A DNA stretch of 62,708 nt, counting the filler, from Dugesia japonica (taxonomy: Eukaryota), in the NCBI GenBank assembly GCA_001938525.1. It is 5 parts of 5 records of this genome, joined end to end, with 100 filler letters (N's around TTAATTAATTAA, not from the genome) between each part and the next. Parts side by side here need not be neighbours in the genome. Positions count along the whole stretch, not along the records: positions 34,614 to 45,297 come from MQRL01624466.1; 4 more parts are not named here. One strand, 5' to 3'. A program made the translations under genes and the position numbers. The notes beneath the pieces are model-generated. The model was not told where the DNA came from, made no database searches, and was given only the letters and a program-made list of their open reading frames with translations. Of this stretch, positions 38,355-43,708 are shown piece after piece (within the stretch, counting starts at the first letter, position 1; every line of letters starts with the position of its first letter).

Positions 38355-40693
38355 GTTTTAAGTGTCGTGATGTNTATTGGTTTTAATTTTGCGATGTGTG
38401 ATGTTAAATTTTGAAAGCACAAAAAGTAGTCTGGAGTGTAGAAATACCTTGTTTATGTTAACATGTTTCATTTCAATGAATTTAAAAATATACGCTTTAA
38501 CTGACTCTCTTGGTTTTAGGATAGTATATAGATCAGCCACCAAATATTTATGATTTGTTGATACCTTTTAGTAGAAAACATTTTAACTTCAAATTTTATT
38601 AGTATATGGATAGTAGCGCATCAAAACACCCTCTTCACGCCAACGAAGTGTTGAAAAAGTTGAGAATTTTAATTGGTCTTTGTGACTACGTAAAAGATAG
38701 TTTAGATTTCGAAAGTTTATTGGTCAAATTTTGGCTTGGAAATTTCGCATATTAGAATTTTAGTTCGTGATTTTATTAGAGATTATTTGTTATAAAATAT
38801 GTGTAATTTCTAAAAAAAAGATGGTAGCGCATTACAACACTTAAACGTTGTTTTAAGAATTTCTCCGTCAAATCCAATCGCATGCTTTGAATTTAATACC
38901 ACTAGAATCAGAATAAAAAATGCTTCCTTCTAATAATTTGATTTCATGTGTTAATTTTAATCATTTTTCAATTTCAAAATTTTACATGGCAATTGAAATT
39001 TATAATTTTTTGAGTAAATTTTGTATTGTAATAATTTTTATAATATAAATTTTGATTTACTTTTAAAAATAAGCGTTAAAAATCTTAAAAACTATTTACA
39101 TTGAAAAATTGAAAATAATAATAAATTGATAATAAATTAAAAATATTAAAATATCACTAGAGACACGTATTTTAAGCATTTTGCAATACATGCAAAATAG
39201 ATGCTAATAAATGTGAATTTCATAAAATATGTAAAGAGATTCTAAAATCACAAATAATTGCATTATTTAATTGTTTTTTAAAAGAAATATTATTATCCTA
39301 CAAATAAAATGATAGATTTTGAAAACAAACTTAGTGTTTAAATAACGATATATTTTTGTCTTATTTTTAAACAAAAATAAATATTTCTCGTCTTGTTATT
39401 AAATATTTCTTCATTATTTGCTTATATTTTTAAATAAAATACATATATTTTTTGCATTGAAACATCATGGCGCGTACAAAATTATCTATACACCAAAGAG
39501 CAAATGCATACAAAGCCAATAGAATTTATAATAAAGATGTCAACATCATGATGTGCTAGCATTGCAATTTATTTTATTTATTTAAAACTTTATTTTATTG
39601 GAGAAACATTTCAGAGCAACAAATTAAAGAAAAGTAATTTTTATATTTATTAAAATGTCTTTAAACGTTTATGCATGCGCATTATAAAATCCGAGTGCCC
39701 CGAATTTCGACGGAGTCGTATCCTGGAGAATGATATGACAGAAAATATTGCGAGAATAACAATCTGAACAAAAGTCAATTCCTGGAGAAGACTAAGTCAA
39801 AATATCGAATTGTTATCAAATATCAATAAAAAAAATTGATCAAAGCTTTTATTTTAAATGAACAATATGAACTGCCAGAAAATAGTGTGAGAATTACAAT
39901 CAGAAGTTACGAAAATGAAATGTCAGAAAATATTGCGAGAATTACAACCAGGATTTACAAAATGAAATGACAGAGAATTATGATAGTAATCTAATTAAGG
40001 CTTGAAATATTGAATTATAAAATGAGATCGTATTCAGACAATTTACAGCGAGAAGCGAAATAATGTACTGAAAATAATGATTATAAATGCAAATGTAAAA
40101 TTCAGTTGTTTATTGAGAGAATAGCCGCTGAGTGATATGAATCATTATTGAGAAATGAGTAAAGTAATTCCTTAAATAGTACAGTTTGCATATTGCAGAA
40201 TAATGATGAGATTGTTCAATTGGTTTCCTTGAATTTCGGTTATCGTACTTAATTATCTTCTAATGGTTTATTATTTTGATAATTTTGATTCTGTAAATGA
40301 TTTCAATTAAGAAATTTACGAAAATATTGTTTTCATATTTTTAATAGTTGCTAATTTTGTTAGTACAATAACAATTAATTTAAGTTTCAAAATTTATTTG
40401 AATAATGAATTATCGATACAATTTAACTTACTGTGTAGATCTGAAATAGGATCTTTATCACAAGTTCCAGATTCGATAAGTTGTTAATGAAATTCCTGAA
40501 GGGGCTTTGTAGTAGAAAGGACCAAAAAAGATGGTTGCGTTAGTGAATATCTTCTCTGATCCGTGCTATAGAAGCGGAGGAACCAGAAATGATAGTCCAC
40601 AGGCCGAAGAACTCCTTTATGCTTAATACCTATTCAATATTTAACAATTGTGTGTTCTGTTTATATCATGCCAACTTTATAGATTTTTATTAG

Positions 40694-41099
40694 ATAAATC
40701 AAGAGCAGGAAGCAGACGCGAAAGCCGAGGCAACCGCACCATCATATGTAGACCAGGACGGCAACTATTACCTTGAATTTAGAGAAGTGCAATCAATACT
40801 GAATCAGATGAGGAAAGAGCAAGCCCTAATAATGCAAAGCTTAAAGGCGGATTTAGAGGCAGCTTAGATGTAGATATCAATTAAAGATGTGAACTGTCAC
40901 ATGGCAGAGTGCCAGCGAAGGTGCTTGTAAGAAAAAGAAAAAGAGAGAAATGAAAGCGAGTCTGAAACCCGCAAAGGAGATAGGACTGCTCATAACCAAT
41001 GTTCGGGTGGTGAACGGAGTATATGCGGAAGAAGATGAAGCAGATGAAGATCGTATTATCCGAGAGCTCATGCAAATGAAGGACATCGCACCGTTATGA
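40694..41099 (+). pseudogene. Disrupted orphan exon/ORF, charged and helical
   Basis: After acceptor AG (40692-40693): INQEQEADAKAEATAPSYVDQDGNYYLEFREVQSILNQMRKEQ...; resumes in another frame ...VYAEEDEADEDRIIRELMQMKDIAPL*. Confidence 0.45.
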
Positions 41100-41398
41100 T
41101 TAGACTTCATTACTGATTGATGATGACATAATGTTGATAATAGAAAGTTTTGTTGGCTCAGTTTGTCTTGGCATTTCTGTTTTGATAGCTTGTTGGAATA
41201 GTAATAATGATCTACTAATATGTATGTTACGTCGTTTTATATAGTATGATAAAGTAGTCTGCTGAGGCAGTATAACGTTGAGGGAACATTATATTTATGC
41301 TTGTTCAATTTACAATGAATTAAAATAAATTTACATTAAATGGGTTTTCACAACTTTTTATCGTATTTTAATTATTATAATTCCCACTTACATTTCAG

Positions 41399-41655
41399 TG
41401 AATAAATCTAAAGACGAGAAACCGGCCAAACGAAAACTGCTGGATGCGCAAATAAAATGGAAGGAGGAGCAACGAGAATTGCACAGTGAGATTTTCTGGT
41501 TAAAAGCGCAGATTTCGAAACAGTGCTCGAAGTATGCGCAGTTAAAAGAACAAGATCTCGCTCTCAAGTACATGAATCGATTGATGGCCACCATAGTGAA
41601 GATATATGCATACAGGAAACGGCCGTATTCACCAGTCTGCGCAATCTGTGGTTAA
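41399..41655 (+). CDS. Orphan coiled-coil-like terminal exon/ORF
   Basis: Opens at CATTTCAG|TG in phase 1 and runs about 85 codons (NKSKDEKPAKRKLL...CAICG). It is GC-richer than its flanks, with AATAAA downstream. Confidence 0.5.
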
Positions 41656-43708
41656 ATTATAGACCAGTAGAGAAGAAGGTGCTAACCGAGGATTTAGTTG
41701 ATTTAGACGCGTTATTGTACATGAATATATAAATAAATAGTCCTCAATGTTAATGTGATTTTTGGAGGGTTTGATAACGGTTATGTATGACCAGTATAAT
41801 TCGTTTGGTTGGTATTGTTTAAAGAAATACTGAGCATAGGATAGAGATTGCTGTTGGGGTTCATAGATCTAGTGAGTAAGACGCAATACCACAAAGTTGC
41901 GCTGAACCCGTGAAAAGAGAGGGGCATGATACCATAAATGCTTGTGGTTTTTAGGTGTGCCCCTAGACATGACAGTGAAATATTAAATATGGAAGTGAGA
42001 AAAAAGAGTTTAGAAAAAAAATTAAAAGATTAAAATCCTAAAGATCCAACATATATAAAAGGTATTTCTAAGTTTTGACATTAGATAAATTTAAAAATGT
42101 TCTGCAAATACTGATATTTGATGTTTTCCGTTTTGAATATGAACTTTTAAATTTGTTCAAAATATCCAAATTTATATGTAAAGTTTTTGTTTTAATAAAT
42201 CTTGTAATCAATTCGAGTTATGATATTGATGATCCGATGAGTTTTCCAAACTCATCTAACAACAACAATATTTAACGATTGCGACTGAATGTGTTTAATG
42301 TCATATTGTATATATTTCATTTAAATTGGATTCTAAAATTTCGTGATTTAATATAATCGAATACTTTCTACATTTATCAACAATTCTTTTTTTATCAATA
42401 ACTACTTTCATCAATATGGAATTTCATTTCGCTGATAAATTTTTGAAATACTTTTCCTTTATAATTAATATTGATATTCATTATTAGTACCTTTTCAAAT
42501 ATTTTTACTTGATTTGTTGAGATTAATTCGAGTACACTGAATAAAAAAGTTACTAAATAATCAATTAATTTACAATGNACAGATTAAGAAATGATGTTGT
42601 ATATCAATTTNTCGGTACTATTTGTAAAGAAAACCTCTGATTATATTCAAATTATTGAAATCAAATTTCAACAAAATATAATAGTATAGAGGGGCAGATG
42701 AAGAGCATGGATTGATTCAATATAAAAATTGTTTATATTGTTTATATTTTATATATTAATATATAAATTGTTTAGCAATATAAAAATGGCAATTATAATT
42801 AAATCTGATGATAATTTCCGAAGCAAGATATTGAAACCGGATAATATAATTATTTTTGAAGATCTTTACCAGGAAGAAAACAAAAAAAAGAACTTTGATT
42901 TTCTTTACTTAGCAGAGAAAAAGATTCGAAAATTTATTTTCATAGTTTCAATAAATTCATTCAATGCTTTACTATGGTCTATTAAATTATAATTTTTTTT
43001 AAATTAAGTCTGAAAAATTGTTTTAATTTAGTTTTGATTAAAACCTTTCATAAATGTTTTTTTTTTAAAAATTTAAAAAAAATTTAATGCATTAAAGTAT
43101 TAAAATATTTAGATACGTATTTTATTAATATTAAAATTTTTCTCTTATTTTTTTACTAATTTTTTAGTTATTTTAATTATTAAGAATCTTTGATAAAATG
43201 TTTATTTATTTTTATTAATTATTTATTTTTTAAATTATTTCTTTAATTATTTATTTTTAATTTTTTACCTTTAATTATTAGGATTATTTAAAATATTTGA
43301 AATGTTAATTATTGAAAAAACGTTTTTTTAAATATTTGAAGATAAACATTTTTTAATTATTGTAATTATTGAGAGAAGTTTTAATTATTGAAATATTTTT
43401 TTTAAATTATTGTAATTAGTGAAAATTTTTCAGAAAATTTTTAATTATTGTAATTGTTAAAAATCTCGTTAATCAAAGGTTTCTTCTCTTTAATTAATAT
43501 TTGTTCAATTTTTTTTCTGTGAAGTGTAGAAATGCAGCCTGTTCCTAATGTTTGCCAGGTAATATGATGATTTTCTGGTAAAACATTATGTTTGTTTTAA
43601 AAGTGTTTAAAGACCTCAATTTCTTTCAGTTATGGAAATTTTAAATAAGTTGTTTGAATAATATGAATTAACGTTATAATTTATATTTAATAAAGTTTCT
43701 AATCTTAG

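Follow-up and report, generated by a model that had tools for sequence, protein, structure and literature searches.

Relation to described retroelements

The LTRs of Ty3/Gypsy elements are usually regarded as non-coding control regions, and LTR/Gypsy is also the class label of the transposons GLT and GLT2. MMTV sag and HIV nef are LTR-embedded accessory genes of complex retroviruses. Between their LTRs, Burro/GYPSM1 elements encode a giant polyprotein comprising Gag, BIR/BCL2-like, Env-like and PR-RT-RH-IN domains. The primary descriptions of the Burro/GYPSM1 elements are reportedly those of Grohme 2018 and Lee 2026. In the accessible text of PMC6431247, Burro/GYPSM1 are giant Gypsy-like LTR retrotransposons of dugesiid planarians; their terminal repeats span several kb, they exist in thousands of copies, and they contain tandem repeats as well as accessory ORFs. 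Fish foamy-like ERVs also carry accessory ORFs according to that text. GLT and GLT2, whose names derive from Repbase, are used as transposons of Schmidtea mediterranea in PMC8532177; the portion available records expression of GLT2 in smedwi-2 RNAi animals and does not describe ORFs or splicing for either transposon. The solo LTRs of ta-TRIM and lennie in Echinococcus possess 4-bp target site duplications (TSDs) and are transcribed and spliced (PMC4558846, available part). One giant retroelement has been reported to aid stem-cell survival in its animal host (as cited in the available part of PMC13465017). The accessible parts of PMC11410931, PMC13238120, PMC10899757 and PMC6238403 added nothing on LTR structure.

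The window analysed here, that is, the whole stretch of 62,708 nucleotides of Dugesia japonica DNA with filler included, contains two cassettes of short open frames, termed cassette 2 and the sister element (Table 1). We consider it fairly probable that cassette 2 stems from an old LTR, now silent, of a large Ty3/Gypsy-type retroelement; it would correspond to the right-hand 2.3 kb of this LTR, which would carry an exon array and use leader splicing. The source element was probably of the GLT/Burro planarian kind.

In the GLT and GLT2 probes (first 400 letters of the Table S1 entries of PMC8532177, reverse strand, compared by eye), GC-richer open frames alternate with AT-rich spacers as they do in the cassettes. 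In the GLT2 probe, a T-rich AG|TG site opens a charged frame of about 79 codons in phase 1, a reading by eye that carries no score, and the words PHKK and AEAxV occur both in this frame and in sister ORF b; no likeness of either probe to cassette 2 itself was noticed by eye. One GLT2 and one GLT qPCR primer, two of the four published, gave no match in the window at up to 3 mismatches. As in Burro, a high copy number is evident, the terminal block of cassette 2 being common to a family whose depth is about 5,000 times that of single-copy DNA, whereas no Burro polyprotein domain was linked to cassette 2 and the Burro accessory ORF lies upstream of ORF1 (PMC6431247, accessible text) rather than forming an exon array in the LTR. 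Complex retroviruses likewise have coding sequence situated within the LTR or overlapping it, to which transcripts are spliced from a donor further upstream, a step that is predicted here. In these vertebrate viruses the coding sequence amounts to one or two ORFs, each with a start codon of its own; the cassettes, from an invertebrate-type genome, hold 4-5 exon-like units that share a phase and for the most part lack a start codon. Searches of Pfam and of Foldseek viral structures revealed no likeness to complex-retrovirus accessory genes in sequence or in fold. The LTRs of ta-TRIM and lennie differ in being short, non-coding and spliced into neighbouring host sequence, and no internal ORF array is described for them in the accessible text of PMC4558846.

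The cassettes are best seen as a variation on an LTR type already known, and a description of their layout was not found in the literature searched. If arrays of alternatively spliced accessory exons do reside in LTRs, this would imply a resemblance to complex retroviruses and an unannotated set of small proteins. The occurrence of the layout in two very different elements hints at little-studied accessory genes in retrotransposon ends. Since the present copy of cassette 2 is silent and decayed, it is of value as a second example of the layout.

Table 1. Positions of features of cassette 2 and the sister element within the window
Feature	Position	Strand	Basis or detail
Cassette 2, left-truncated remnant of an LTR-like repeat	39672..41969	+	tiling by diverged copies, joints, flank depth
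48-bp (16-codon) tandem array, unit number variable among copies	39726..39980	+	TRF, go-back joints
Fragment of an unrelated very high-copy repeat inside the tandem array	39770..39862	-	depth, loose ends, joint
Island A0, acceptor-like site, then 39-codon phase-1 frame	40572..40690	+	pyrimidine score, phase
Island A, acceptor-like site, then acidic frame of 57 codons that departs from the phase-1 pattern (phase 0)	40694..40867	+	
Island B, 68-codon charged frame without a clear acceptor	40893..41099	+	
AATAAA between islands B and C	41324..41329	+	
Island C, AG|TG phase-1 exon-like frame, about 110 codons, helical, frame-broken	41399..41732	+	P0002 match
Last AATAAA of cassette 2, overlapping the island C stop, then a GU-rich stretch	41732..41737	+	237 nt before end
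Terminal block common to a very high-copy family, with hairpin (41920-41964) and CCCCTAGACA end	41882..41969	+	
Sister element, length 4198 bp, ends TGTTGGGG..CCCCAACA, flanked by a CTTC duplication	49663..53860	+	
Sister candidate common leader exon, open from the first base, 28 codons, phase 1	49663..49755	+	
Sister islands	50442..53607	+	phase-1 frames of 82 (50442), 116 (52251), 100 (52751) and 126 (53225) codons

Extent and copy number of cassette 2

Cassette 2 is a dispersed repeat rather than a host gene. Contigs of two public runs tiled 40222-41865 with diverged copies, 83-90% alike, and joints in other copies extended left to 39672 or beyond; the right flank (42233-42570) had single-copy depth. 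The islands exhibited depths of 33-399 compared with 7-12 for allelic flank contigs, and 10-14 contigs were present at each of 41050, 41263 and 41342, with a single contig covering 40972-41014. Islands and tail travelled together as far as 41865 in the contig pieces, and one copy joined 40717 to 41676, a joint present in both contig runs. RNA reads at least 95% alike to cassette 2 amounted to 13 of 795 and 1 of 77 in two runs, and no RNA run was among the sequencing runs listed as containing the sequence. Instead of the single-copy, intact and expressed state of a host gene, the locus is multi-copy, frame-broken and represented by almost no near-identical RNA reads. The diverged genomic copies, together with the conservation of the island C protein, bear out the separate family proposed in the sequence-only reading, and tell against the single-copy region or host exons that it had named as contrary outcomes. 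This copy is a decayed, left-truncated end-piece of a mobile element bearing what is probably a row of small coding exons.

TRF reported a period of 48 at 39862-39978, with a similar unit at 39726-39762, and the contigs showed go-back joints of 37+11 and 39+9 letters in the tandem array. Depth over the high-copy fragment within the array was 40,000-270,000. Loose ends lay at 39770 and at 39835/39862, and the joint 39716>39867 bypassed the fragment, which matches 58862-58922 of the window.

The sister element

The sister element sits inside a minus-strand gypsy pol remnant (RVT_1 at 53767-54117, RT_RNaseH_2 at 49352-49693) and has TGT..ACA ends with an 8-bp inverted repeat and the 4-bp target duplication CTTC, as a solo LTR would. 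The own left end, TSD and internal region of cassette 2 being missing, its status as a putative LTR rests on the sister element by analogy.

Ginger-like DNA transposons also have TG..CA ends and a 4-bp TSD. A non-autonomous DNA transposon of that type carrying cargo exons would explain the ends and duplication of the sister element and is in keeping with the finding that no RT was linked to either element. We regard it as very improbable, however, since the inverted repeat is merely 8 bp long and an LTR-like poly(A) signal, GU-rich stretch and folded tail stand at a fixed distance from the end.

Exon-like islands and reading phase

The islands had a GC content of 0.39-0.47 against 0.16-0.32 in the spacers, in agreement with the GC-richer ORFs described from the sequence alone, and the acceptor sites reported with them were present: TTTTATTAG|ATAAATC at 40685-40700, ATTTCAG|TGAATAAATC at 41392-41408 and ATTTCAG|TG..GAATAAATC at 52744-52772. 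The NKS word said to be shared was confined to sister ORF b and island C; the open frame of island A reads INQ. The acceptor-like site of island A0 was tied for the top pyrimidine score among 68 YAG sites. No Pfam family scored above cut-off for any of the eight island frames.

Island frames of at least 80 codons started in phase 1 after an acceptor in all five cases, three of them with AG|TG, while island A, in phase 0, and island B, with no clear acceptor, stand apart (Table 1); in the sister element, a single 61-codon frame, at 51930, is likewise in phase 0. The common phase of the long frames suggests alternative last exons joined to one leader. Met is absent from sister ORF b and from the 50442 frame, and in island C it first occurs at codon 57, so that an upstream exon would be needed. 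A single candidate for such a leader may be present at the start of the sister element, with ATG at 49687 and a G|GTAAGA donor at 49748 in phase 1. Strong plus-strand acceptors (pyrimidine score of 12 or more, a threshold picked after looking) opened frames of at least 80 codons at 3 of 17 sites inside the elements versus 5 of 163 outside (Fisher p 0.03), and a phase-1 frame of 84 codons was also found among 11 minus-strand sites of the sister element.

No splice joint was present among those listed in two RNA runs (about 25% of each run covered), a search in which the islands reached a depth of 0-2 and other copies were the source of nearly all reads. The lack of a junction would agree with an LTR remnant in which the islands are decayed captures from an internal ORF or host genes and the "acceptors" are edges of T-rich spacers, with no alternative splicing. 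Islands A and B are riddled with stops, and island B is probably decayed; T-rich spacers commonly adjoin frame starts in AT-rich DNA, and the GLT2 probe crosses its spacer unspliced. We nevertheless judge this account unlikely, since phase 1 is common to all five long frames and the conservation between island C and its relative P0002 starts exactly at the acceptor, a hydrophobic, intron-like stretch preceding it in both.

The flatworm spliced leader ends in AUG and would read in phase 0. This makes an operon-like array, with islands released by polyadenylation and spliced-leader trans-splicing instead of cis-splicing, decidedly improbable, as the long frames are in phase 1 and three lack an early Met. 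Such an array would nonetheless accommodate the AATAAA signals 75 nt (41324 to 41399) and 97 nt (53128 to 53225) ahead of an acceptor, the early Met that sister ORFs a and c have of their own, and the trans-splicing known in flatworms (PMC4558846, accessible text).

According to the favoured reading of cassette 2 as part of an LTR with an exon array, the left end of the LTR would have been lost from this copy. The LTR would bear a row of short coding exons, most of them lacking a start codon and each provided with a separate 3' splice acceptor; after the last would come the poly(A) signal of the element and then a U5-like tail of roughly 210 nt, closed by a hairpin and CA. In an element that is intact, cis-splicing may join a short upstream exon with a phase-1 end to one alternative last exon, and the products would be small helical accessory proteins with a common N-terminal leader; we infer the splicing, this leader and any protein function.

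Conservation of island C

Comparison with P0002, the sole relative returned among 164 candidates by profile search, shows that island C is conserved coding sequence, with conservation starting at the acceptor. The match (39% identity over 74 aa, ungapped, E 2.4e-10) begins at VNKS, that is, from the predicted acceptor onward. This copy changes frame near 41615-41620, and the match continues past the break in a second frame (41613-41711, 53% identity, 0 of 2000 shuffles); the sequence-only reading had missed both this break and the true extent of the island, to 41732. A structure model of P0002 consists of two long helices. Word-indexed protein searches returned nothing for island C or sister ORF b, exact look-ups in a protein collection found none of four window proteins, the best ESM Atlas score was 0.80, at noise level, and Foldseek yielded no match to viral structures at E up to 0.001.

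Polyadenylation signals and the right end

AATAAA does not follow each frame, as had been claimed: the statement fails for island A, the sites lying at 39825, 41324, 41401, 41451 and 41732, where the background frequency is 4.2 per kb. From the last AATAAA to the terminal CA, the distance is 237 nt in both cassette 2 and the sister element, the respective ends being CCCCTAGACA at 41960-41969 and CCCCAACA at 53853-53860, and a hairpin-plus-5-nt end geometry is common to the two. The tails had been called structured, and both do fold better than shuffles, moderately (cassette 2, z -2.37, 4 of 200; sister element, z -2.04, 7 of 200). A poly(A) signal, a GU-rich stretch and a folded tail give cassette 2 a U5-like tail at the level of sequence. 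Searches of Rfam gave no match at gathering level in the window, none at E up to 10 for the cassette 2 tail and four, at chance level, for the sister tail; a ribozyme reading of the tail was dropped after these results.

Contig depth increased more than a hundredfold, from below 400 to about 50,000, at about 41882, and was about 50,000 at 41898, from 93-94 contigs. About 18 + 88 bases lay at ~50,000 depth, and the depth arithmetic fits an end at 41970-41987; copies ending at 41969 are consistent with this profile, in which the position is not resolved to the base. Seven contigs left at 41926, and no loose end at 41969 was present among the contig ends listed. The contig pieces listed included no bridge across 41865 to 41969. 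The step in depth and the lack of a bridging piece might be taken to indicate two unrelated neighbours, an ORF-bearing repeat of low copy number that extends to about 41865 and a short element or satellite unit of high copy number that supplies the CCCCTAGACA end, and the loose end after 41926 returns to GACGCA, also found at 41880, in the manner of a ~59-nt tandem unit. We hold this arrangement improbable, however: the terminal block shows no TSD-flanked TG start, and its 237-nt spacing and hairpin-plus-5-nt geometry equal those of the sister element.

Relationship between the two cassettes

Sequence homology between the cassettes is not supported, the resemblance being weak. The tail motifs cited in favour of kinship were present (TGAACCCG at 41903/53686, AAGAGAG at 41915/53727), but their pairing was no better than chance, 551 of 3000 shuffles giving as much of an 8-mer followed by a 7-mer; they lie 66 and 174 nt from the respective ends, in non-equivalent places, and as evidence of kinship fall within chance. 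Alignment of tail to tail was equalled by 329 of 1000 shuffles. The proteins of island C and sister ORF b showed no significant similarity (256 of 500 shuffles), P0002 against sister ORF b was weak (21 of 2000), and only A versus a, out of 20 cassette-to-cassette ORF pairs, reached 3 of 500, non-significant after 20 tests. BLASTN and TBLASTX between the elements gave short AT-rich matches only. A colinear k-mer chain of 162 exceeded all but 7 of 200 local shuffles, yet lay within the 122-223 obtained for other stretches of the window.

The proposal of a common layout was upheld by the phase-1 acceptors, the equal distance from poly(A) signal to end and the terminal hairpins. More speculatively, and as a tentative proposal, several diverged giant LTR families of invertebrates might use the LTR as a modular accessory-gene cassette, in which one short leader exon would be joined by splicing to a row of exchangeable terminal exons, all in one phase, that encode small coiled-coil proteins. 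Modules could be gained or lost between copies (compare the 40717>41676 joint), the U5 end would be common to a family of thousands of copies, and solo LTRs could express the proteins when PIWI silencing lapses.

Left end and flanking sequence

The left end and TSD of cassette 2, not found in the sequence-only reading, again escaped detection: no TGTCTAGGGG and no matching TSD occur on the left side. TG starts in 38400-40600 gave no TSD other than a chance candidate with a 3-bp inverted repeat at 38402, and TGTCT at 39656 was dropped as the left end, having no TSD. No primer-binding site, polypurine tract or linked pol was found for this copy. Scans of DNA and loci in viral, metagenome and prokaryote collections revealed no related locus. 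A gypsy remnant at 43709-45200 was discarded as the interior of the cassette 2 LTR because the single-copy DNA of the right flank intervenes. The neighbouring MFS gene is MFSD8-like.

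Copy number and extent of cassette 2

Cassette 2, the left-truncated LTR-like stretch on the plus strand, is a genuine repeat remnant, old and present in multiple copies. At least one of its exons is coding and conserved, and its layout recurs in the sister element, a solo-LTR-like neighbour. Four of 24 sequencing runs (contig sets X1 and X4; raw RNA X9 and X12) were mapped on 38400-42570 at 82% likeness. The flanks were covered at a depth of 7-12 by allelic contigs approximately 98% alike, and the island bins (40640-41759) gave depth sums of 33-399. Summed depth is not copy number, according to the mapping tool's own warning, so the safe reading is ten or more old copies. 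A single-copy region, named beforehand as an outcome at odds with a repeat family, is not what was found: contigs numbered 10-14 at 41050, 41263 and 41342, with only one at 40972-41014, and 40222-41865 was tiled by pieces 83-90% alike.

A joint from 40717 to 41676, present in one contig of each contig run, indicates another copy without most islands but with both sides kept. Backward-stepping joints (37+11 and 39+9 letters) indicate that a 48-bp array varies by whole units. The joint 39716>39867 represents a copy without the high-copy fragment 39770-39862, and the family therefore reaches left to at least 39672. The sequence-only reading had found neither left end nor target-site duplication (TSD) for cassette 2, and exact and near-exact searches likewise found neither.

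At 41898 the depth was approximately 50,000, from 93-94 contigs. If this depth is flat, it spans some 18 bases to the left of 41900 and 88 to the right, consistent with a high-copy block that begins near 41882 and stops at 41970-41987. No loose ends at 41969 and no pieces bridging 41865 to 41969 were among those listed in the mapped runs, and seven contigs departed at 41926; an end at 41969 is thus plausible, not proven. A TSD belonging to the terminal block (approximately 41882-41969) was looked for and not found. The last AATAAA lies 237 nt from the terminal CA in both cassette 2 and the sister, a match noticed after the fact, and folding placed a hairpin closing 5 nt from the end in both tails.

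Layout shared with the sister element

The sister starts TGTTGGGG, ends CCCCAACA and is flanked on both sides by CTTC. At 4198 bp it is complete and interrupts a minus-strand gypsy pol remnant, leaving separate RVT_1 and RT_RNaseH_2 parts (Pfam); judged by sequence, the pattern is that of a 4.2-kb solo LTR, and the sister serves as reference for the layout. A frame that runs open from the element's first base meets a G|GTAAGA donor, in phase 1, at 49748; this is a candidate leader-exon donor.

All motifs named by the sequence-only reading were located, and the islands are indeed GC-richer than their own spacers. The best-scoring acceptor sites fall at island starts. All five island frames of at least 80 codons are in phase 1 (5/5); three of the five start with AG|TG, and three lack an early Met. 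Strong acceptors opened a long frame at 3/17 plus-strand and 1/23 minus-strand sites within the elements and at 5/163 outside (3/17 vs 5/163, Fisher p 0.03, with an acceptor-strength threshold picked after looking).

In an intact element, a short phase-1 exon would most likely be joined by splicing to any one of a set of last exons inside the LTR. Each last exon would yield a small protein, helical in structure, and the genomic RNA would use the final poly(A) signal. The islands may lie in U3, where only the 3' LTR would express them, or past an early start site, in which case every LTR could. Precedents for LTR-embedded genes are MMTV sag and HIV nef. Trans-splicing at the island acceptors, in place of cis-splicing, is compatible with the spacing but not with the phase of the frames, given that the flatworm spliced leader ends in AUG.

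The proposal of a separate family of the same design holds for the multi-copy remnant and the common layout, but not for kinship by sequence: nucleotide likeness to the sister was not above genomic controls and the tail motifs are at chance level. The tail pair TGAACCCG/AAGAGAG appeared in 551/3000 shuffles, and its distance to the element end differs between the two. Nor does AATAAA follow each frame, being absent after island A and frequent in the region (4.2 per kb). NKS is confined to two frames, island C and sister ORF b, whose alignment was no better than shuffles (256/500). In each element an AATAAA (41401 and 52765) falls within the NKS codons, immediately past the acceptor; the conserved word may be the poly(A) signal of the upstream unit, not a protein motif. 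An 18-nt stretch directly after the acceptors (QEADxK) matches at 89% between island A (40706-40723) and the first sister island (50447-50464); alignment over their whole frames was not significant.

Island C as coding sequence

A search of island C against 1.84 billion representatives yielded one match, P0002 (112 aa, E 2.4e-10), a single ENA sequence from a 554-nt contig. The two aligned gap-free along 74 residues (39% identical), and the match begins at VNKS, where the acceptor is predicted. The P0002 C-terminus matched a second window frame, 41613-41711 (53%; 0/2000 shuffles). Together the two frames indicate an island C of approximately 110 codons, broken near 41615-41620 in the window copy; its stop codon overlaps the last AATAAA. 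One gap, somewhere along the span, was present in a diverged contig covering 41435-41675.

The predicted P0002 model comprises two long helices (mean pLDDT 72), with no significant fold match among viral structures. Its score against sister ORF b was beaten or equalled by only 21/2000 shuffles, a weak hint of kinship. Pfam, word-indexed searches and Atlas added nothing more.

Expression

The RNA results cover roughly a quarter of X9 and of X12. Reads at least 95% alike made up 13/795 and 1/77 of those mapped, depth over the islands was 0-2 and no splice joints were among those listed. The window copy appears silent in these two runs; the absence of a listed splice joint does not refute splicing.

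Relation to known elements

Burro/GYPSM1 elements of planarians are described as giant and high-copy, with tandem repeats and accessory ORFs (PMC6431247). By eye, the first 400 letters of the Schmidtea mediterranea GLT and GLT2 probes show the same island/spacer alternation, and GLT2 has AG|TG opening a phase-1 charged frame (PMC8532177, Table S1). This likeness indicates that the class is probably in the planarian repeat library already. One primer each of GLT and GLT2 was searched in the window and neither was present. The literature searched, to which the primary Burro papers and Repbase reports were external, gave no account of an LTR that carries an array of same-phase exons, which is weak evidence of novelty. 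Cassette 2 most likely functions as an LTR whose accessory genes are spliced, with no assignment to Burro or GLT.

Setting

Coordinates of cassette 2, the sister element and neighbouring features
Feature	Position (strand)	Remarks
Cassette 2	~39672-41969 (+)	left-truncated
Island A0	40572	phase 1
Island A	40694	phase 0
Island B	40893-41099	
Island C	41399-41732	phase 1, at least 80 codons
Sister element	49663-53860 (+)	
Sister frames	50442, 52251, 52751 (ORF b), 53225	phase 1, at least 80 codons
Sister, shorter frame	51930	phase 0
MFSD8-like transporter gene	56557-58011	intronless; Pfam MFS_1, E 1.8e-26
Short repeat family, small palindrome	11703-11789, 39770-39862, 46520-46620, 58803-58922, 62622-62708 (both)	very high-copy; summed depth >200,000 at 39800-39939
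Second short repeat core	42215-42262	very high-copy; bin depth ~31,000-37,000
Gag-like and RNase H-like gypsy remnants	37905-38216 (-), 43709-45200 (+)	near cassette 2, without link to it
Inverted arms	43436-43631, 45918-46113	196 nt, 85% complementary
Inverted repeat	61324-61497	86 nt, near-perfect, gap 2 nt

The window has a GC content of approximately 25% and numerous transposon remnants. Its composition, its repeats and the likeness to GLT2 suggest an AT-rich animal as host, probably a dugesiid planarian. The second short repeat core drew many RNA reads, derived from other copies. At 21461-24137, zinc-finger frames and frames like DNA polymerase B, all decayed, show a Polinton-like resemblance. 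The stretch 34566-35470 resembles the integrase end of a BEL/Pao element, after which come a purine tract and LTR-like sequence beginning with TGTT; Pfam gave no match there. The right inverted arm lies within a frame that resembles a GIY-YIG endonuclease remnant. The near-perfect inverted repeat is possibly an assembly fold-back or a hairpin.
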